Below the pieces are notes generated by a model. That model made no database searches and was not told where the DNA came from. It was given only the letters and a program-made list of their open reading frames with translations. This document shows positions 13,631 to 44,110 of a stretch of 64,000 bases of DNA, piece after piece. Every line of letters begins with the position of its first letter. Positions within the stretch are counted from its first letter, which is position 1. The DNA is taken from positions 32,001-96,000 of IMG/VR virus record IMGVR_UViG_3300045988_180675. One strand, 5' to 3'. The stretch comes from a virus. The position numbers were made by a program, and so were the translations under genes.

Positions 13631-14173
13631 TTAGTAATCTCTTTCCGAAAAAGTAATACCAGAATCCTTATCTAGCCGTGTATCTGGAATTTCTCTTGCA
13701 TATTCTTCAAATTTATTTAATGGAATTTTATGGATGTTGCAGACTGCCTCCTTGAACGGTGTTTTTACCCCAAGTTTCTCTCCGTTCCAATCTCCTTCTT
13801 GATCAGAAAAATATAGCCCACTAATATCGCAAATACTCTGCTCAAAATCAATTCCTGATTCCTCCTTGTTTTCTAGGCACCAACTAATTTTTACTATACA
13901 ATCAGCTTCTGTTTCGTCTTTTTCGTTCGGTAGAAAGACTTTTACAATAAGTTCATCATTTTCTTCTTTTTTGCTAACATCAAATAATGCTGTAAGCAAT
14001 TTAATGGTTTTCCCTGTACCTCTTGTTTTGGAATCGGTTGATTTGATTATGCTAATCAGTTCAGCGATCTTTTCTTTCGCTTCGGAAATGTCTTTAATCG
14101 AATATGTTAACGTGGCGTACAATTTTTCTCCGTTTGAACCCTTGATATAGTTTTTGATTACAAATCTCATCAT
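13631..14173 (-). CDS. Cytoplasmic protein, module gene X (paralog of 24249-24887)
   Basis: MRFVIKNYIKG...EAKEKIAELISIIK aligns with MKFLIKNYSKD...EAQEKMAEFITKIK. Shared CDISG(L/M)YF.DQE and IPDT.LD motifs. Promoter TTGACT (14222-14227), 17 nt, TATAAT (14199-14204). Confidence 0.65.
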   Translation of the reverse strand: MMRFVIKNYIKGSNGEKLYATLTYSIKDISEAKEKIAELISIIKSTDSKTRGTGKTIKLLTALFDVSKKEENDELIVKVFLPNEKDETEADCIVKISWCLENKEESGIDFEQSICDISGLYFSDQEGDWNGEKLGVKTPFKEAVCNIHKIPLNKFEEYAREIPDTRLDKDSGITFSERDY

Positions 14174-14397
14174 TCACTTTCCTCTTTTCTACGTCTTTAT
14201 TATATGTTATAAAGAAAGTAAAGTCAAGAAAAAAAAGAAGGTCTATCAAGCCTTCTTTTCTTTTTCTAATTCTTTGGAGAGAGTTAGAACAGGGAATTGA
14301 ATAACAAACTTTTCATAATTTTTGGAGAAAAAATGCAAAATCATTTAATTGTTCCCTGTATCTATATACTAGCATATCCTAGCGGTATATGCAAGCA

Positions 14398-15261
14398 CTA
14401 ATTTCTGTTATATCCGAAGGTTCTTGTCTTGAAAACATCTTTCCAATAATTTTCTCGTGCATAGATACGTGCTGGTTGGGTATTCTTTGGGAAGATCTCA
14501 AGAAGCGTGTAAGTAAAATTTTCAATGAAGTAGTCTTCGCCTTCATTTTCTAATAGTTCTTTTAATCCTTTGTTTCCGCCTGTAAACGAGGTTTTGTAAT
14601 CGTTCCATCTTTGTAAGATGCCGTCCTTGCCACTTGCAGATCCGATATATAACTTTCCGTTTCGTGTATCAGTGATGCAGTAAATTCCTTTAACACCAGA
14701 TAGTGCTGCTCTGTAGTCTGCATATCGAACGCCATCAATCATGGATTTTAATGTTTTGAATGGTAGATGCACATTTTCGAAGCCGTTAAACTTAATTGGT
14801 TCGTAGATGTTAGGCAGAATTTCTGCCACTTCGATATTTTTAATCATATTTTCTGCACTAAAAATATATCTGGAGTAGGTATTCCCTTTGTGATAGTGGA
14901 TGATTAGTCGCCCGATTAGGCTACTATATTCAGGTAATTCGTCGTGTCCACACGTCCCAATGTTGTCGGCATCTGGAATTGATGTTATCTTACCAGCTGA
15001 TACTAATAACCACTTATCATCACTTTCCTGTAATCTTACAAAACCGAAGCATAGCTGCCCGTTCGCAGTGAAGTTTCGACTCTTTCCCTGGTGAGAATGA
15101 TATGTGAAATCTGTATTTCTATCATTTGGATCACTCTCATACCAATCTAAAAAGTGCGTTCTTCCTTGCCAACCCATGTTTAAGCCGATCTTGGTGTTTG
15201 CAATTTGATTCTTTGTTAAGTGTAAAATATCGTTTAGTTTTAATTTCTTGTCATCGTTCAT
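14398..15261 (-). CDS. GIY-YIG nuclease domain protein with an uncharacterised N-terminal domain
   Basis: C-terminal KGIYCITDTRNGKLYIGSASGKDGILQRWNDY...NKGLKELL...RENYWKDVF is a GIY-YIG signature. Start moved to MNDDKKL (15261), because the track start overlaps the promoter. Confidence 0.75.
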   Translation of the reverse strand: MNDDKKLKLNDILHLTKNQIANTKIGLNMGWQGRTHFLDWYESDPNDRNTDFTYHSHQGKSRNFTANGQLCFGFVRLQESDDKWLLVSAGKITSIPDADNIGTCGHDELPEYSSLIGRLIIHYHKGNTYSRYIFSAENMIKNIEVAEILPNIYEPIKFNGFENVHLPFKTLKSMIDGVRYADYRAALSGVKGIYCITDTRNGKLYIGSASGKDGILQRWNDYKTSFTGGNKGLKELLENEGEDYFIENFTYTLLEIFPKNTQPARIYARENYWKDVFKTRTFGYNRN

Positions 15262-15712
15262 ATTTGTTTTCTCTTTCTTTATCATATAACAGTATATCAT
15301 ATTTTTACAAAAAAATCAAAAAAATAAAAGAAGGTTTACTAGACCTTCTTTTAGTAATATATGCTTAACAAATAAGCAAGTAAGAGAGATAAGGGCTATG
15401 CAACCCTGGACCTATGTCCACCTATATATTATTACAAGCAAATACAGAATGCAAGAAGAAAATAAAAAAAGAGAACGCCATTTTCTTTGACGCCCTCGCA
15501 TCTCTTTCTGCATACGCAGTAGAGTGTTGTAAGTTTTACCTTACGATTAACTTGTGTTTTTAGAGTCTACTTTTTAGTATGTATCGTTCGCTCAAGCAAA
15601 AGAGCTGAGTGGGATGGTGTACTTTGTTCGCTTGATTTACGATACTTTTTTATCTTACATGCTAACATCTAAAATGTCAATAAATATTTTTGCAAAAATA
15701 TCTAATTAGTAT

Positions 15713-15741
15713 TTGTTAAAAAGAAACTATTGTGTTATACT
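15713..15741 (+). promoter_or_regulatory. Class P-A promoter
   Basis: TTGTTA (15713-15718), AAAAAGAA, 17-nt spacer, TATACT (15736-15741) with TG at -15. Confidence 0.6.
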
Positions 15742-15770
15742 ATAAGTATAGAAAGAAAGAGAGAAGAAAT

Positions 15771-16112
15771 ATGGGCAAACTTATTTTAAAAAAGGATTGG
15801 AAATATTTAACAATCATGGAATGGGAAGGAATATTGGAAGATGTTTCTGAAGCTAGCACGAAGTTTAAATATCAGACATTTACGGTAAAAGGAGAAAGAG
15901 TTTACGAACTTGTTATGAAGAACGAAGGGAAGATATGCGGACGATGGGTTGGAAACAAAATAACCTTTTTAAGAGGATGCTCTGCTTGCCACAAGGAAAT
16001 TATTGAAGCATATTTAACTGGCTATAGTGCAGGAGTTATTTCAAATAGATTATCGCTGATCCAAAAAGTAAGTGACTGCGAGATGTGGATTGGCATGGAA
16101 GTTAATAAATAA
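15771..16112 (+). CDS. Hypothetical protein
   Basis: Start set at the ATG at 15771 (RBS AAGAAAGAGAGAAG). The track start at 15732 is a GTG inside the promoter. Confidence 0.6.
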   Translation: MGKLILKKDWKYLTIMEWEGILEDVSEASTKFKYQTFTVKGERVYELVMKNEGKICGRWVGNKITFLRGCSACHKEIIEAYLTGYSAGVISNRLSLIQKVSDCEMWIGMEVNK

Positions 16113-25639: not shown

Positions 25640-25801
25640 TACTTATCTTCCTTTCCATACTCTTATTATACTACTATATTTTCTTTTTAGCAAGTATTGT
25701 TAAGACTTTAACTTTGATTGGATCTAAAAAAAATAATATATTTTTATCAAATTTCTAAATAATTTCTTGCATATACTGTTATGGCATGCTAATATATAGG
25801 A

Positions 25802-25914
25802 GCAGGGGGACATACATCAGCCATCCCTATATTGATAAACATTACCCCCTGTATTTCCAACTTTCCCCAAAGAGTTAGAAAAAAGAAGAAGGTTATAGTC
25901 GCCTTCTTTTTTTT
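25802..25914 (+). ncRNA. Candidate sRNA (about 113 nt) with C-rich motifs
   Basis: Promoter TTGCAT (25767-25772), 17 nt, TAATAT (25790-25795). Stem CAGGGGG (25803-25809) / CCCCCTG (25845-25851). Second hairpin AACTTT-CCCC-AAAGAGTT. Terminator AGAAGG/CCTTCT plus T8 (25886-25914). No RBS-preceded ORF. Confidence 0.4.
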
Positions 25915-25972
25915 ATTTGCTTTGTAGAAAATATTGTGATATAATACAATACAGATAAGAAGGGAAGGAAAT

Positions 25973-26143
25973 ATGGAAGAAAATAAGATATTAGTAACAG
26001 AACTACCGTTGCCGTTTGACGAGAAAGATTTGGGAGAATTAAAGAGTGCAAAGTGTATTATTGACTATCGTGGAGATGGAAAGCTTGTTGTGAAAGATGG
26101 ACAGCTCGCATTGTCTTATGATGGTTGTTGGTGGAAGAAGTAA
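25973..26143 (+). CDS. Small hypothetical protein (56 aa, not in ORF track)
   Basis: Promoter TTGCTT (25917-25922), 17 nt, TATAAT (25940-25945). RBS GAAGGGAAGGAAAT. Product MEENKILVTELPLPFDEKDLGELKSAKCIIDYRGDGKLVVKDGQLALSYDGCWWKK. Confidence 0.45.
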   Translation: MEENKILVTELPLPFDEKDLGELKSAKCIIDYRGDGKLVVKDGQLALSYDGCWWKK

Positions 26144-30552: not shown

Positions 30553-31002
30553 ATGTTATTTGAAAGAAAAGACATAAAGAAGATTATCGAGATTAGCGAA
30601 AGAATTGCCGACGGGAATAAGTCGTTATCAGCTCAAGATGTCGTAGCGTTTGACTCATTTTATTCAAGCGTTAAGCTTGGTGTTGAGGTGAAGGTTGCAG
30701 AAATTGCCAACGCTTTCTATCCGATCACAAAGCATAAGTTTTTTGAACTAAGAGATTTCTGCATTGTTGACGATATGGTTAATGTTGCTTGTTATGACCT
30801 GGATGTGAATGTGTTTACATTCTCATTTCCAATCAGGATGTTTAACATGAGCAAGAAGGAAATCGAAAGTCACACATTCGACTTATGTCGTCGTCAACTC
30901 AGAAACAAGAAGAAGGAATTAGAAGAAAAAGAAAAAGAAGTAGAAATGCTAAAACAGAAGATTTCTGATTTGGAACAGGTTTGCCAATCTAAAGAATATT
31001 AG
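30553..31002 (+). CDS. Family B paralog
   Basis: 149 aa: ...LSAQDVVAFDSFYSSV...FYPITKHKF...FSFPIRMFNMSKKEIESH...coiled coil. Terminator at 31010-31048. Confidence 0.7.
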   Translation: MLFERKDIKKIIEISERIADGNKSLSAQDVVAFDSFYSSVKLGVEVKVAEIANAFYPITKHKFFELRDFCIVDDMVNVACYDLDVNVFTFSFPIRMFNMSKKEIESHTFDLCRRQLRNKKKELEEKEKEVEMLKQKISDLEQVCQSKEY

Positions 31003-31056
31003 AAGAAGAAAAGTGGGCAGCACTTAATAAGGTGTGGTCCACTTTTTGTATAACTT

Positions 31057-31083
31057 GTTTCGAGTAGTTTCGACCTGTTTCAA
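31057..31083 (+). repeat. Three direct GTTTCGA repeats at 10-bp spacing just upstream of the sRNA-1 promoter
   Basis: GTTTCGA at 31057, GTTTCGA at 31067, GTTTCAA at 31077. The -35 of the next promoter is at 31096. Confidence 0.6.
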
Positions 31084-31130
31084 GCAAACTATTATTTGCG
31101 TTATACTGTTATATATGCTATAATTTAGTT

Positions 31131-31225
31131 AGTCGATCTACCGAGGGTAGAAACGATCTCGAAAGACGAGCTAAACTAATTTCTGTAGGACGCAGCAGAC
31201 ACGGTAACTCGTCTTTTGCCTTTTT
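31131..31225 (+). ncRNA. sRNA-like unit 1 (paralog of 32540-32634)
   Basis: Promoter TTGCGT (31096-31101), 17 nt, TATAAT (31119-31124). Hairpin CTACC-GAG-GGTAG flanked by GATC...AAACGATC. Outer stem GACGAG/CTCGTC encloses hairpin TTCTG-TAGGACGCAG-CAGA. T-runs at 31213-31225. No ORF. Confidence 0.5.
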
Positions 31226-31240
31226 AAGTAACAAATTTGG

Positions 31241-31415
31241 TTGGACTAAAATTAGACCAAATTCAGACCAATAGTAGACTAAGCTTAGACTAGGACCAGT
31301 CTAAAATCGGACTAGAATTAGGGCTATTTCAGACCAAGACTAGACCGATACCAAACTAAATCCAGACTGTGATTAGGATGTATTCAGACTACAACTAGAC
31401 CGAAATCAGGACTTA
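31241..31415 (+). repeat. Array of about 16 direct 11-bp repeats (core T.AGACYA), strictly helically phased
   Basis: The RGAC cores start at 31243, 31254, 31265, 31276, 31287, 31309, 31321, 31331, 31342, 31353, 31364, 31376, 31386, 31397 and 31409. Spacing is 10-12 bp, with one position skipped or inverted near 31298. Confidence 0.8.
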
Positions 31416-31701
31416 TCATCATCTTGATCGTGAATCATTGTGGATCAACGTAAGAAAACAAAAGAAGCTGATCCAGGAGGAAACAAGAGAGAACAAAAAG
31501 GACCAATGATAAGAAATCAAATAGGAAGCAATAAACGATCACAGGAACAATACAAAGTAGAGATATAAAAGAAAAAAGGTGGAAGAACAATGCAGCCACC
31601 TTTTTATATTTTATGTGTGTGCGTTAAGAGATGCTCGCCCAGCCAGAATACAACCATGAAGGCATCCGTAATACAAAAATATACAATATAGCAAAACAAC
31701 C

Positions 31702-32253
31702 CTATAAGGAACTAATATAAGCCACAACCCCATTACGCAACATGGGAACATTATCGCTCATACCAAATAGACAATGATCGCAATTCTCTATAAGACCTTC
31801 TAAAGACAACATATACTTCAATCGTAAAGAGGTAAACAATATAGAACTTGTAAAAATATCCTTAGCAACCACAGAAGGACTTCTTAATGGACCTATATCT
31901 GCCAATACACTCTCTTTAGGTTTTCTATACATCGTAAACTTATCCCCAGGCTTAACAATATAGTTAGTTAGATTCATAATTGGATTCAAGTATATATTGG
32001 AGCAACCTTTCCTATCAACCAATGTTGTTTTATTTTCTGTAATCATATTTGCGATCGTCTTTTCGATAATGATGAACAAAGATTGGAAGTCCACCTTCGT
32101 TTCAGGAAAACAATGGTGATAAGACTCAATACCAAAAGTTTCCTTTAATTCATTAAAAAAGAATTTGTCACTAAAGTCCATTCCGAATAGTTGAGTAGTA
32201 AATACAGTTTCTTCCGTTTTTTCATCTTTCAAGATCAGTTCTATTTTTCTCAT
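31702..32253 (-). CDS. Hypothetical protein; the only solid ORF inside the repeat-rich region
   Basis: 183-aa ORF. Promoter TTGAGA, 17 nt, TATAAT upstream. RBS AAAGAGAGAAGAAAAT. Bidirectional terminator at 31572-31606. No motif recognised. Confidence 0.6.
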   Translation of the reverse strand: MRKIELILKDEKTEETVFTTQLFGMDFSDKFFFNELKETFGIESYHHCFPETKVDFQSLFIIIEKTIANMITENKTTLVDRKGCSNIYLNPIMNLTNYIVKPGDKFTMYRKPKESVLADIGPLRSPSVVAKDIFTSSILFTSLRLKYMLSLEGLIENCDHCLFGMSDNVPMLRNGVVAYISSL

Positions 32254-32539
32254 ATTTTCTTCTCTCTTTCTTTACCCAAATTATATCATATTCTTCATAT
32301 TTTCTCAAAAGAAAATAAAATAGAAAGACACAAGATATGCACAAACAAATAGATCCAAACCTCGTTCCCTGTTTCTTTCTTAGCTCTTCTTTTTTTTATT
32401 AAAAGAGAGAGAATAGGAAAGTGGTAAGAAAAGGTATACGCAAGAAAGGATACAGGAAGAACAAAGGAAGAACACAGGAAATTTAACTCAGTCAAAATTA
32501 CAGCTTGCCATATACTGTTATTCCTGTTATACTTTAAGT

Positions 32540-32634
32540 AGCTGATCTACCAAGGGTAGAAACAGATCCGAGAAACCACTTTAAAACTTCCTGTAAGACG
32601 CAGCAGGAAAGATAAGGTGGTTCCTTGTTTTTTA
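32540..32634 (+). ncRNA. sRNA-like unit 2 (paralog of 31131-31225)
   Basis: Promoter TTGCCA (32505-32510), 17 nt, TATACT (32528-32533). Same GATCTACC.AGGGTAGAAAC.GATC element. Outer stem AACCAC/GTGGTT, inner TTCCTG-TAAGACGCAG-CAGGAA. T6 at 32627-32633. Confidence 0.5.
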
Positions 32635-32890
32635 TATAAAGAAATAAGAATAGGAGAAGTCGGACATGAGAACTCTCCAGTTTTTCTCTTGCCCCTCTTC
32701 TTTTTTTAGAAAAGAAAGAAATAAGGAAAAGGCAGGGAAAACATAAGGGAGGTATATCAGAACGAAATAATATGGATCCAGATTATGTAATCAGTGGAAC
32801 GGGAATTACAGGATCCAACCGTGAGTCCATATATTGTTTGCTATATCTTAGGTTGCTGCATTACTCTACTTTATCTTTATTTATATAATA

Positions 32891-33575
32891 TTGGATTCCT
32901 CTACTATACCAATATACAGTATGTACAGTTATTATATTGGGCTATTCTAGTAGTCCATATTTATTATTCAGTATCGTTTATCTTGGGCTACTCTAATAGA
33001 ACAAAATTTTACAATAAGCCCATTATTCTCTATGGTTCTATCTTTTGTTTTTGGTTTGCTCTAGTAGCCCAGTATTATAACGATCTATATTTATACTTGG
33101 TCTACTCTATCGACCCAGTATCCTTTATTTATGCAAATTATTTTTTGGGCTTATCTACTAACCCATATTCTTATATATTACCTATATTTTTGGGCTGATC
33201 TACTGGACCAACTTCATTCTTGGTTTTCTCTATCAACCCATTATTTATCCAGATCAAACTAATTCTTGGGCTATTCTATCAGCCCATACTTTTTCTATTC
33301 TTGGTTTTCTCTATAAGACCAATCTCATTACACTGGGCTACTTAAGTATACCAGTCTATACAGATTCTTGGGCTACTAGACGGAACCATTTTTCTTATCT
33401 TAGTTTTCTTATTTCTTGGGCTACTCTACTATCCATATTATTTTCTTGATCTACTTCTTTTTGGGTCGCTATAGCAGACCAATATTTTATATATCTCTTT
33501 ATTTTCTTGGGCTACTATACGAGTCCAATTTTTATTCTTTAATATCTTTAATCTTGGGCTACTATAGCAGACCGT
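32891..33575 (+). repeat. Array of about 17 degenerate 21-22-bp inverted-repeat sites (consensus TTGGGCTACTCTA..AG.CCA), mostly spaced 44-49 bp apart, with some at about 30-35 bp
   Basis: Sites start near 32891, 32937, 32983, 33051, 33097, 33145, 33190, 33220, 33266, 33301, 33333, 33368, 33416, 33461, 33507 and 33554, plus a degenerate or inverted one near 33016. Example: TTGGTCTACTCTATCGACCCA, where TGGTC and GACCA are complementary. Confidence 0.8.
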
Positions 33576-34885
33576 GTTTTTAGGTGATTTTTGGAAAACG
33601 TGCCCTGCTCGCTGCTCTCTGGCTCTATGCAATGTTTATTTTCGCCCACTTCCGCCTCCCCTTTGGGGTTCGTTCGCAGCTCGCTTTTTCTTTTTTATAC
33701 TTCTTATTTTCCTATCCATCTTCTTGTTATTATCTTATACAGGAAAATCTACGTGATCACCGTGATGAAAGTGGTGCAAAATGGGATTTTAAACGGAAAA
33801 AGAGAGAAATATCAAGAAAACTAAAGAGAAAGTCCTTATATTCTCCTTTATTTAAAGGGAAAAAAGAAAGAAAGTATCGAAAAAGTAAACTTCTTACTAG
33901 ATTTCGGTATATTTTCTTAACAAATTCCCTTATTTTCAGCTTCTTCTTACTAATTTCCTACTGAATTCCGATTCTTAAAAAAGGAAAAAAGAAAGAAAAA
34001 ATGTCGTTTCTGAATACAAAAATATCGAATTATGTCAAATTCATCCCTATTTTAAGGAAGAAATGCCTATTCTTGTCCGTTCTCTCTTTATTTTCAGGAA
34101 GCCGTTGTGTTTTCCCATGTCTTTTCTGTATCTTTTTCTTATGTTTGAAAAGAAATTAACAGGAAAAGGGTAGAGAAGTTACCCAAGAATGCTTAAATTT
34201 ATCACTTAATTCTATGATCGTAATGAGAAAAGGCGAGATAAGATGCGAAAAAAGTGCAGAAATCGCCTATTTTACCCCTTCGACCTAGGTTTAAAAGGAA
34301 AAGTGGGGCTAGAGCATATTGTTACTAAGTAGAAAGCCTTTGTGTTTTCCTGTGTTTTTTCTTTTTATTTTCCCTTGTTTAAAAAGAAGAAGAAAGGAAA
34401 AAGGAAATTCATAGGCAAAAGTGCTGGAATGCACTTTCGCTCAAACTTATATTCTCAAAACTTATGAAGAAAACTAGGAAATAAAGAAGGAAGATACAGG
34501 AGTGACCTAGGTATCAATGATATTTAAGTTATGATGAAGCATTGGAAGAAGAAAAAGAAGGTACTGGAGAAATTAAAGTAGAGATTATGGTTATGTCGTA
34601 GATGGGGTTTATGATTTCCTTTTATTTTCTTTTGTTTGGGGTTTGATTATTCATTGATACTTCGGCATACAGGGAAGCCACTAGATTTTCTTGAAGTGAT
34701 CTCGAATTATTTCTTTCGTTTGAAAAGAATAAGATACGGAAGAGAAAAAGATATTATTTCGTATCATAGGTTTCTTTTGCTTTTGCCTGCACTACACGGT
34801 GTTGGACGCCTGTGAGTTAAGTGTTAATACTTGCTTATTAAGATGAAAATAGTGCAAAAAATAAACAGTATTTTATGTAAATTCT

Positions 34886-34919
34886 GCGACAATACATATA
34901 CTCAATATGTAAATGTCAC
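34886..34919. repeat. Imperfect hairpin homologous to the candidate oriT hairpin, located downstream of mob
   Basis: GCGACA-AT-ACATAT-ACTCA-ATATGT-AA-TGTCAC. Compare GTGACA-AT-ACATAT...ATGTCAC at 35910-35943. Confidence 0.5.
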
Positions 34920-35022
34920 ACATAGTTTTCTTTGCAGTTACTATTTTATATTCTTTTAAGAATATGTTTTGGAGTATTTTTATATTCTCTATGGAAAGCA
35001 TTTTTATATTCTAGTTAGCAAA

Positions 35023-35053
35023 TAAAAAAGGAAGATATTTGATATTATCTTCC
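35023..35053 (-). terminator. Rho-independent terminator overlapping the mob stop codon
   Basis: GGAAGATA (35030-35037) / TATCTTCC (35046-35053), followed by TTTTTT on the minus strand. Confidence 0.6.
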
Positions 35054-35863
35054 TGTGAATTCTGATAAAGCTTGTCTATTTTTGCTTTCTTTATCACTAT
35101 GTTCTTGTCTAAGTTTTTTAGCTCTTTCACGTTCTTCTTGGATAGCTTTATTGATGAAATCCATCTTGCTTAGATGCTCTCGTTTCATTGGAACACGGTC
35201 AATCATCAAGCCTAAACTCTGACATATCTCACAGAATTTTTCTCTGATCATAGCTGTGTAGGTGATCAGTCTGTTGTTGAATCTTGACTCTGGTTCATCC
35301 GCAAATGGAAGTGGAATACCAGCTTGTTCAAGTGCTTTTTCCTTTCCGATCTCAAGTCTAGTAGTGCCATCAGGATTACGCTCCTTATAAACAAAAATTT
35401 TACGTTCGTGAATATGTGGAGTTGACTCATCAAGATGTAAAGCTGAATCGAGAACGATAACACGACCTTTTGTGATTTGCTTTTCATACTCTGCCAACTG
35501 CTTATAGGCTTCAGATAATTTATCTGCATCTGGAAAGTCATATAAGTTTCCGATCTGGATAATACTTTCCGTAGGTCTGTATCTTGATGACTTACGGAAT
35601 TGATCCATCGTCATAAGCCTATCCTTTTTTCTGATTTTTCTGACTTTTTCATTTCTAAATTCTAAAGCATCTGCAAAGTGTTCTTCATAAAATCGTTTCT
35701 CAGCAGCCTCAAAGTCGTCTGCCATTTCTGGATAAAAGCACTCATACACATTATCAGAAACTCTTTCTTGGATGACATGAGGAGATTCATTTAAATCATA
35801 ATTTCGACAATTATGGTTTGGATTTCCCTCCCATTTTTGCCCATTGTGAATTGATACTTTCAT
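35045..35863 (-). CDS. mob: MobV-family relaxase (Pre/Mob plasmid recombination enzyme)
   Basis: Start at MKVSIHNGQKW (ATG 35863, RBS AAGAGG). N-terminal NHNCRNYDL (HxxR-type motif I). SALHLDESTPHIHERKIF is the HxDE...PHxH motif, nearly identical to the MobM-type HLDESTPHMH as I recall it. Confidence 0.8.
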   Translation of the reverse strand: MKVSIHNGQKWEGNPNHNCRNYDLNESPHVIQERVSDNVYECFYPEMADDFEAAEKRFYEEHFADALEFRNEKVRKIRKKDRLMTMDQFRKSSRYRPTESIIQIGNLYDFPDADKLSEAYKQLAEYEKQITKGRVIVLDSALHLDESTPHIHERKIFVYKERNPDGTTRLEIGKEKALEQAGIPLPFADEPESRFNNRLITYTAMIREKFCEICQSLGLMIDRVPMKREHLSKMDFINKAIQEERERAKKLRQEHSDKESKNRQALSEFTGR

Positions 35864-35891
35864 TTTAAATAACCTCTTTTCTCTAGTAAGG

Positions 35892-35943
35892 AGTATACCA
35901 CATAAAAAAAGTTGTGACAATACATATATATAATGTCACAACT
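35892..35943 (-). promoter_or_regulatory. mob promoter overlapping a perfect 10-bp-stem hairpin (candidate oriT / RSA site)
   Basis: Minus strand: TTGTCA (35915-35920), 17 nt, TATACT (35892-35897). Inverted repeat AGTTGTGACA (35910-35919) / TGTCACAACT (35934-35943) with a 14-nt AT loop. Confidence 0.45.
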
Positions 35944-35953
35944 AAAATTGTAT

Positions 35954-44014: not shown

Positions 44015-44110
44015 AAAAATTGTGGATAAAGTGTGAATAAAATAGCATAATCATTAGTGAACGACACGTTCACTTCTTTTATTTATATAAAAAAGAATAG
44101 AAAGGGAAAA

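Follow-up and report, generated by a model that had tools for sequence, protein, structure and literature searches.

What could lead a densely coding mobile element to keep some 4 kb of highly ordered, mostly noncoding DNA next to its relaxase gene? The question is raised by positions 31,057 to 35,043 of a 64,000-nucleotide stretch, hereafter the window, which covers positions 32,001 to 96,000 of the IMG/VR virus record IMGVR_UViG_3300045988_180675 and, judging by its sequence, probably belongs to a circular, plasmid-like and conjugative element of ~200 kb. A preliminary description, made from the sequence alone, had proposed the region as the cis-acting core of the replicon. We tentatively read it as a cis-acting maintenance/control locus, in which two arrays of putative centromere- or iteron-like sites would each be coupled to a regulatory small RNA (sRNA). 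This reading fits better than any other single one, with a probability that we place somewhat short of an even chance.

The window has a GC content of ~35% and is ~81% covered by open reading frames (ORFs) in a greedy ORF cover. Within it, 32254-35044 (2,791 bp) is the longest span that lacks a conserved gene, and 31003-31701 (0.7 kb) is also noncoding; no tRNA or tmRNA genes were found in the window. The boundaries and the one conserved gene of the region are as follows.

30553-31002, + strand, ORF149, directly upstream of the region
31010..31048, + strand, intrinsic terminator of the upstream + strand operon (ORF149 end 31002), stem AAAAGTGG...CCACTTTT followed by a T-run
31702..32253, - strand, ORF183, an ORFan and the only conserved protein gene in the region, intact in 9 of 10 aligned relatives

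The ORF poverty reported in the preliminary description was borne out by this comparison, as was its suspicion that two ORF calls were artifacts of the repeats, given that the calls at 32794-33198 and 33584-33964 carried frameshifts and 1-74 stops in all 10 aligned relatives. The terminator at 31010-31048 that it had named is legible in the sequence, and its 3' arm and T-run (GTCCACTTTTT) are kept in relatives. In window orientation, the blocks run as three TTTCGAG repeats, promoter P1 with sRNA 1, an 11-bp array (array 1), a bidirectional terminator, ORF183 (- strand), promoter P2 with sRNA 2, an inverted module copy (m0), a palindrome array (array 2), a GC island, three direct modules and mob (- strand). 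The whole of this organized, mostly noncoding architecture is conserved in >20 related metagenomic contigs of 150-206 kb and missing from plasmid, phage and GTDB genome collections, and the block order is kept in both lineages, including L010-type loci in which 32.65-34.6 kb escapes blastn alignment. Conservation peaks at the sRNAs, the GC island and the modules, and noncoding blocks reach 0.87-0.93 compared to 0.84-0.91 for their coding neighbors. The arrays score 0.3-0.7 yet keep their logo, phase and orientation, as one would expect if arrays of binding sites gained and lost whole units. Within the 64-kb window, the array and sRNA motifs are confined to this region. The preliminary description could not match the combination to a described origin or partition type, and neither could we: neither PLSDB plasmids nor INPHARED phages gave a blastn match to the region, the window had no Rfam match at gathering thresholds (best subthreshold score of 27 bits versus a threshold of 64), and Rfam at E-value thresholds brought nothing credible. 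The comparison across relatives showed that the blocks are conserved together.

The preliminary description listed two sRNA-like units, and we found that each has its own sigma-70-type promoter and intrinsic terminator. The units comprise the following features.

31056..31085, + strand, three direct repeats (G)TTTCGA(G), period 10 bp by Tandem Repeats Finder
31096..31124, + strand, promoter P1, sigma-70-type, TTGCGT-17-TATAAT with ATACTGTTAT in the spacer
31130..31225, + strand, sRNA 1, ~95 nt, apical loop conserved as A(A/G)GACGCA, minimum free energy (MFE) -28.3 kcal/mol, z -2.56
32505..32533, + strand, promoter P2, sigma-70-type, TTGCCA-17-TATACT with ATACTGTTAT in the spacer
32539..32634, + strand, sRNA 2, a paralogue of sRNA 1, MFE -32.8 kcal/mol, z -4.81

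Both sRNAs fold into a 5' hairpin (UCUACC/GGUAGA), followed by a long terminator hairpin and a U-run, and the apical loop of the terminator hairpin, A(A/U)GACGCA, is conserved between them. The outer stem reads GACGAG/CUCGUC in sRNA 1 versus (A)ACCAC/GUGGU(U) in sRNA 2 and is fully compensated. Across 22 distinct orthologues of sRNA 1, 99.6% of cells were paired and 4 pairs carried double changes; across 20 distinct orthologues of sRNA 2, 99% of cells were paired and double changes occurred at 8 of 30 pairs, a count that none of 500 shuffles reached and to which slid controls gave at most 2. G-U pairs are frequent in the units and are valid on the + strand only, which argues that the units are + strand RNAs. 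When unit 2 was the only input to a covariance model, the model detected sRNA 1 (E=5e-10) and nothing else in the window or in distant loci. The compensatory changes within orthologues and between paralogues, the + strand G-U pairs and the conserved promoters and terminators indicate, at the level of comparative sequence analysis, that both sRNAs are real, and by the same comparison they form a new family with a strong structure model and no Rfam match. A pattern scan for the sRNA core found none in viral contigs. The single match in GTDB, in a metagenome-assembled genome of Vicinamibacterales, was a chance-level number that the covariance model did not confirm, and we rejected it.

The promoters of the two units share the form TTGnnn-17-TATAAT/TATACT, with ATACTGTTAT invariant in the spacer. 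At no fewer than 11 mostly intergenic sites of the window, this exact 10-mer precedes a TATAAT-like -10 box by 2-7 nt, and at one mismatch it has 23 matches in the window compared to 7.8 expected.

ATACTGTTAT sites, + strand: 25773, 31103, 32512, 39889
ATACTGTTAT sites, - strand: 10257, 15295, 36758, 47401, 47427, 55515, 59302

Given that ATACTGTTAT is common to at least 11 window promoters, P1 and P2 fall into a class of promoters that is the element's own, and this speaks for their being real promoters under common control. The 10-mer itself looks like an element-wide promoter or operator motif, implying a global regulator. The three TTTCGA repeats of 10-bp period listed in the preliminary description were recovered at 31056-31085, end ~10 bp upstream of the P1 -35 box, and are present as three copies in 20 of 22 distinct relatives and as two copies in L008 and L009; they are a candidate operator or activator site. 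Elsewhere in the window, at 25773-26143 (+ strand), a ATACTGTTAT-type promoter lies ~200 nt upstream of a called 56-amino-acid gene in a 560-bp gap, and this stretch may hold another leader or small RNA.

Array 1 begins directly after sRNA 1 and is followed by the bidirectional terminator.

31243..31418, + strand, array 1, 15-16 direct repeats AGACYAAnnty in an exact 11-bp register with no phase slip
31571..31608, both strands, bidirectional terminator (A-run, GGTGG...CCACC, T-run), read from the sequence, with the same element in L010

The terminator closes the block of unit 1 and array 1 on the + strand and ORF183 on the - strand. The array is essentially as the preliminary description had counted it: its motif matches 16 times in 218 nt, compared to ~2 times per 300 nt in the rest of the window. 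Among 23 relatives, 20 keep 12-18 slots in a single 11-bp phase, with 22-46 nt between the sRNA 1 terminator and the start of the array, and the copy number shifts by whole units among relatives. An 11-bp period would place the sites on one face of the helix, which gives a rationale for DNA and none for RNA; the exact register over 12-18 units is why we take array 1 to act as DNA, and this is the strongest step of our analysis. In the parC centromere of plasmid R1, the 11-bp iterons come in two sets of five, and a ParR dimer binds each of them (PMC2241845); ParR of other plasmids binds 10-, 17- or 20-bp repeats (PMC9426499). Like R1 parC and the type II ParMRC centromeres, array 1 has tandem direct repeats of 10-11 bp on one helix face and varies by whole units. 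Unlike them, it runs to 15-16 uninterrupted units versus 4-10, and it neither flanks nor overlaps a parMR promoter, sitting instead between an sRNA terminator and a bidirectional terminator; no ParM-like, ParR-like, actin-like or ribbon-helix-helix match was found among its neighbors. As for an iteron-type theta origin, the window had no Rep family match, and ORF183 is a family-restricted ORFan.

The second array lies downstream of sRNA 2.

32856..33577, + strand, array 2, 17 quasi-palindromic 22-bp sites in one orientation, TTGG(G/T)CTayTCTAnnRn(A/C)CCA

The preliminary description had listed about 17 inverted-repeat sites. Their number stood, with 17 counted, and their symmetry did not: the left half of the site is strong and the right half weak, which makes the sites asymmetric, and all face one way. 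The logo was built from 203 distinct sites at 20 loci, and a 21-mer consensus had 7 matches, all inside the region, versus 0 in 100 shuffles. Spacing is mostly 45-48 bp, with some sites 30-35 bp and also 68 bp apart. At a threshold of 3 mismatches, under which the window scores 15, the relatives that span the array have 8-16 sites, and L006 has 4. The sites are conserved position by position while the AT-rich spacers drift. Symmetric half-site positions showed no covariation by eye (for example, T at 4 is often opposite C at 17), a judgment made with no mutual-information test. On these sequence properties, array 2 fits a dimeric DNA-binding protein rather than RNA hairpins, and we disfavored the hairpin reading of the palindromes on the same by-eye comparison of half-sites. 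The sopC centromere of F has 12 repeats of 43 bp, each with a 16-bp inverted repeat (PMC3177203). Array 2 resembles this type Ia centromere in having >10 direct repeats, a quasi-palindromic motif of the form TTGG-N14-CCA, a putative binding site, in each and ~43-47 bp between sites. It differs in its irregular spacing, unconserved spacers, weak right half-site and loss of most sites in one variant, and in that no sopAB or parAB adjoins it; a scan of ~50 window proteins gave no match to the ParA or ParB families. We also rejected a CRISPR array, given that the repeats are 66-83% alike, the spacers are AT-rich and mutually similar, and no cas domains were seen.

The two arrays are each placed directly downstream of one of the two paralogous terminated sRNAs, on the strand of that sRNA, and each is closed by a terminator-like element. 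In the maintenance/control locus that we propose, both arrays would be protein-binding DNA repeats, array 1 parC- or iteron-like and array 2 sopC-like, and each would nucleate a higher-order nucleoprotein complex for partition and/or replication or incompatibility control. The apical loop of the sRNA lying upstream may contact a target RNA or protein and set the level of a maintenance function, and the TTTCGAG repeats and ATACTGTTAT would serve as operators that tie the sRNA genes to element-wide regulation. The comparisons establish the repeats with their phase, orientation and conservation, the RNA structures, the promoter class and the lack of coding, and from these features we infer protein binding, the maintenance role and the link between sRNA and array. 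The small structured antisense RNAs that control plasmid copy number, such as ColE1 RNA I, pT181 RNA I and pIP501 RNA III, offer a parallel. Like them, the present sRNAs are ~95 nt and structured, have their own sigma-70-type promoter, a rho-independent terminator and a conserved loop, and sit in the noncoding control region of a plasmid. Unlike them, they are two paralogues 1.4 kb apart with the same loop, no overlapping opposite transcript or rep leader was identified, and they belong to no Rfam family. The parts of the locus are of known kinds (centromere- or iteron-type arrays and small terminated plasmid RNAs). Its site sequences, its sRNA family and its module, like the conserved way in which these are combined, are not in Rfam, PLSDB or INPHARED, and we could not match them to a described system. 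It is conceivable, though doubtful, that the region represents an undescribed type of maintenance locus, in which each array is physically and functionally coupled to its own sRNA copy and is bound by proteins of novel fold. In such a locus, the sRNA would set or sense the nucleoprotein state, amounting to RNA-coupled partition, copy-number or incompatibility control in a widespread uncultured family of ~200-kb elements.

Several observations weigh against a maintenance/control locus. Among the neighbors in the window, which represents about a third of the element, no Rep, ParA, ParM, ParR, TubZ or ParB-like protein was recognized, and known centromeres adjoin their par genes. There is no DnaA-box cluster, with three scattered one-mismatch boxes in 31-35 kb, and the genes of both flanks converge on the region, which is not origin-like. 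A search of the window for complements of the sRNA loop turned up nothing convincing at a plausible mRNA position. The AlphaFold2 (AF2) model of ORF183 has a predicted local distance difference test (pLDDT) score of 60.7 and no fold match in the PDB, DNA-binding proteins included; ORF149 likewise has no PDB fold match and is without support as a centromere-binding protein. A natural variant, seen in two samples (L006, on a 202,160-bp contig, and L007), carries a deletion that joins the 5' portion of ORF236 to hairpin 1 of sRNA 1. The deletion removes ORF149, the TTTCGAG repeats and P1, and 4 palindromes are left (13 of 17 gone). Given that this variant persists on a 202-kb contig and in a second sample, ORF149, the TTTCGAG repeats, P1 and most palindromes appear to be dispensable, at least together. 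In the distant relative L030, whose Mob is 48% identical and which has the same ATPase-phosphoesterase-Mob synteny, a gene directly follows mob. The replicon core put forward in the preliminary description is left unsupported by the lack of a Rep/ParA/ParM/TubZ-like neighbor and of a DnaA-box cluster, the convergent flanks, the variant that lacks 13 of 17 palindromes and the sRNA 1 promoter, and hairpins that proved unexceptional.

Those hairpins belong to four copies of a ~85-bp module, listed here together with the GC island.

32660..32760, - strand, module m0, inverted copy, aligns with the other copies, conservation 0.80 at 32701-32750, kept in L015
33596..33695, + strand, GC-rich island ending in a T5CT6-8 run, conservation 0.88
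34096..34180, + strand, module m2, conservation 0.93 at 34101-34150
34331..34415, + strand, module m3, conservation 0.88 at 34351-34400
34672..34755, + strand, module m4, conservation 0.87

The module follows the pattern GGAAGCC..GTTTTCC..TTTC..GTTTGAAAAGA..GGAAAAG in three direct copies and one inverted copy, which bracket the palindrome array and the GC island. The direct copies, at 0.87-0.93, are among the best-conserved noncoding blocks. The "at least six long hairpins" of the preliminary description are better described as these four copies: when three were folded on both strands against dinucleotide shuffles, 34322-34432 (+), at module m3, alone beat the shuffles, with z -2.5, and the two others gave z -0.1 and -0.6. 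The module hairpins fold better on the + strand. The GC-rich island was confirmed at 33596-33695, with an identity of 0.88 among relatives. Its overall fold is no better than that of shuffled sequence (z +0.5). The two lineages differ in it by two adjacent compensatory pairs (GCTGC/GCAGC versus GCCAC/GTGGC), which suggests a 5-bp helix, GCUGC/GCAGC, that would close ~60 nt and be followed by TCGC and a long T-run; the length of the terminal T-run varies among close relatives. A long, strand-specific hairpin of far more than compositional stability, as a single-strand origin, single-strand initiation (ssi) site or single-stranded DNA (ssDNA) promoter would have, is lacking in these blocks apart from 34322-34432 (+), with two of three modules at z -0.1 to -0.6 and the GC island at +0.5, the single-strand origin motifs RSB and CS-6 not having been searched for.

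For ORF183, 104 homologues were found, none less than 77% identical and many on contigs of 150-206 kb. No distant homologue was found among 1.84 billion representatives, there was no Pfam, PHROG or NCBIfam match, and a protein search found no relatives among 185,579 GTDB species genomes. The gene lies on the strand opposite to sRNA 2, and the promoter predicted for it (32308-32280) is past the sRNA 2 gene. The 3' untranslated region of ORF183 (31605-31700) contains, besides an GTGTGTGCGTT tract, the conserved inverted repeat GATGC...GCATC, of which L010 has a longer form (TGATGCCT...AGGCATCA). For ORF149, AF2 gave a confident model (pLDDT 87.5) made up of two helices, a sheet of three strands and, at the C terminus, a coiled coil of 47 residues. 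A third gene, ORF447 (an ORFan of 444-450 amino acids), occurs in 7 relatives, in copies that are 81-94% identical, on the strand of the sRNAs, with sRNA 2/m0 on one side and the palindrome array on the other; a ATACTGTTAT-type promoter of its own precedes it, and no trace of the gene was found in the window.

32280..32308, - strand, ORF183 promoter, TTGAGA-17-TGnTATAAT, 11 of 12 consensus positions, also in L015, divergent from P2
L015:2970-4313, - strand, ORF447 copy
L012:2787-4136, - strand, ORF447 copy
L006:3797-5131, - strand, ORF447 copy
L007:1872-3224, - strand, ORF447 copy
L014, L017 and L024, further ORF447 copies

On its right, the region is flanked by mob.

35029..35054, - strand, mob terminator
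35045..35863, - strand, MobV-family relaxase-domain protein of 272 amino acids, identified with a profile of homologues
35885..35945, - strand, candidate origin of transfer (oriT), outside the region, 17-bp inverted repeat overlapping the mob promoter, then TGnTATACT

The preliminary description had called this gene a relaxase. The 272-amino-acid protein alone did not sustain the call, being below the Pfam cutoff and having no PDB sequence match. The family did: a profile of 32 homologues matches MobM (4lvi) at E=6e-5 with HxxR and HxDExxPHxH aligned, and 15 of the 32 match Mob_Pre. The relaxase call is thus only remotely supported at the sequence level. The arms of the oriT candidate form a perfect 17-bp repeat (AGTTGTGACATTATATA / TATGTATTGTCACAACT), which is conserved, with a compensatory change in lineage B. 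In pMV158, oriT lies upstream of mobM and overlaps its promoter, with IR1 followed by ATAGTGTG/TTATACT (PMC3105389, PMC5863519). The present locus resembles this MOBV1 arrangement in its MobV-family neighbor gene and in the inverted repeat followed by TGnTATACT over the mob promoter, and it differs from MOBV1 plasmids in the 4-kb region downstream of mob, which has no counterpart there. Given that 35885-35945 copies the pMV158 layout, the best oriT candidate lies outside the region, and we rejected an oriT within it.

We weighed four other readings of the region. It could be the leading or establishment region of conjugation, in which a nick upstream of mob sends mob and then the region first into the recipient as ssDNA, with the modules and the GC island acting as single-strand initiation sites or ssDNA promoters and the sRNAs as early regulators. 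The canonical MobV-type oriT candidate at 35885-35945 speaks for this, and given that the nicked strand of pMV158 is the mob sense strand (PMC3105389), the region would by analogy enter the recipient after mob. The modules are the best-conserved noncoding blocks (0.87-0.93), and the element has two SSB genes and a conjugative-type primase. The lagging-strand origin of pMV158 adjoins mobM. However, the module hairpins are no stabler than shuffles, bar one, and they fold better on the + strand, whereas the transferred strand would be the - strand; the two phased arrays and their conservation go unexplained, and mob in L030 is directly followed by a gene. We consider an establishment region unlikely. 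Slightly less likely still in our view is a hub of transcriptional control, in which the arrays are operator clusters for global repressors or silencers that spread or loop in the manner of KorB, Omega or Rco and control conjugation or surface-protein operons, the sRNAs act in trans in the same circuit, and there is no role in replication or partition. The sharing of ATACTGTTAT between P1/P2 and at least 11 window promoters, the conserved TTTCGAG repeats abutting P1, the position between convergent operons and the dispensability of parts in a natural variant are all consistent with such a hub. The array motifs, however, occur nowhere else in the window and so are not dispersed operators, the arrays overlap no protein-gene promoters, and 16 phased plus 17 further sites far exceed the usual operator numbers.

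The arrays could also work as RNA, with read-through of the sRNA terminators yielding long RNAs whose 16-17 motifs titrate an RNA-binding protein in the manner of CsrB and with the sRNA part serving as a leader or attenuator. This accounts for the position of each array on the same strand directly downstream of a promoter and terminated leader, for the terminator-like closures (array 1 by 31571-31608, array 2 by the GC-island T-run), for the single orientation of all sites, and for the protein gene that lies between unit 2 and array 2 on that strand in 7 relatives. The exact 11-nt register, on the other hand, has no rationale in RNA, and the palindrome half-sites show no apparent covariation, as judged by eye on the logo and on single sites. 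ORF447 has its own promoter, so that unit 2 is not needed as a leader, and the terminators look strong, with 8-15-bp stems and U-runs. We hold this explanation to be improbable, and still more so the view that the region is a decaying variable stretch, left over from gene loss (for example, of ORF447) and filled with slippage repeats that have no function beyond the two sRNAs. The presence or absence of the 447-amino-acid gene, the large deletions in L006/L007 and the varying array copy number would suit decay. Order, logos, phase and orientation are nevertheless kept across lineages whose spacers have diverged past blastn detection, several noncoding blocks are as conserved as their coding neighbors (0.87-0.93 versus 0.84-0.91), the window retains no trace of ORF447, and the positions of the sites already seemed constrained relative to the spacers; decay is accordingly a very improbable account.

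The proposed maintenance/control locus sits on an element whose wider context we could partly reconstruct. The exact ORF183 protein is encoded on a 199,422-bp JGI metagenome contig (3300053491, Ga0557493_009743), and a second record, Ga0557493_022496, has the same length and a different rotation, which indicates a circular molecule. The latter record breaks at approximately window position 33649, inside the GC island, and the break is probably an arbitrary linearization of the circle. Besides the MobV-like relaxase domain protein, the window encodes a metallophosphoesterase, a T2SSE/VirB11-type ATPase, RecJ-like, RNase H, PhoH-PIN and nuclease proteins, two SSB proteins, a CHC2/DUF3854 conjugative-type primase, SecA, and LPXTG pilins with a sortase, along with many ORFans. 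The MobV relaxase, the ATPase, the primase, the two SSB genes and the circular 199,422-bp contig are the basis for placing the locus in a plasmid-like conjugative context, and sequence comparison assigns the element to an uncultured family of ~200-kb plasmid-like elements.

Among more distant relatives, L032 (Mob 46% identical) has, at L032:2372-4122, 1.75 kb of noncoding DNA following mob and a 146-amino-acid ORF, with at least 10 TATAAAGACC repeats and a GC-richer patch. We rejected this patch as a homologue of the GC island, given that nhmmer finds none, and the architecture is analogous only. The closest cultured relative by protein is the Butyrivibrio proteoclasticus megaplasmid pCY360, whose ATPase and Mob share 31-32% amino acid identity with those of the element. 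At 13995-15924, pCY360 (L036) has an unannotated, short-repeat-rich stretch of 1.9 kb near a metallophosphoesterase gene. Inocles are giant oral plasmid-like elements of 245-395 kb with 24-32% GC that are defined by the InoC gene (PF13814); their origins were placed by GC skew only, and the paper describes no locus of this kind (PMC12340149). By description, which is the only level at which we compared them, the two groups are alike in being large, circular, metagenome-only elements absent from isolates, with low GC, mostly unknown genes and conjugation genes (PMC12340149). The present element differs in its size of 190-206 kb and GC of ~35%, and no PF13814 protein was seen in the window.

Until now, the origins of giant uncultured extrachromosomal elements have been located by GC skew alone. 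This locus offers defined, conserved and clonable candidates in its two arrays, its sRNA family and the nearby oriT-like site. Possible uses include vectors and stability assays, the finding of DNA-binding proteins and the tracking of the family in metagenomes. Should each sRNA prove to work with its array, an RNA layer would be added to centromere or iteron function; if not, the locus nevertheless provides a clear case of a new sRNA family and of arrays evolving by unit turnover under constraint. No dif-like site (difSL or Firmicute dif, 28-31 bp) was found at up to 8-9 mismatches. The sole perfect DnaA box in the 64 kb (TTATCCACA, 44021-44040, - strand) lies beside a one-mismatch box in the intergenic DNA upstream of a pilin gene.

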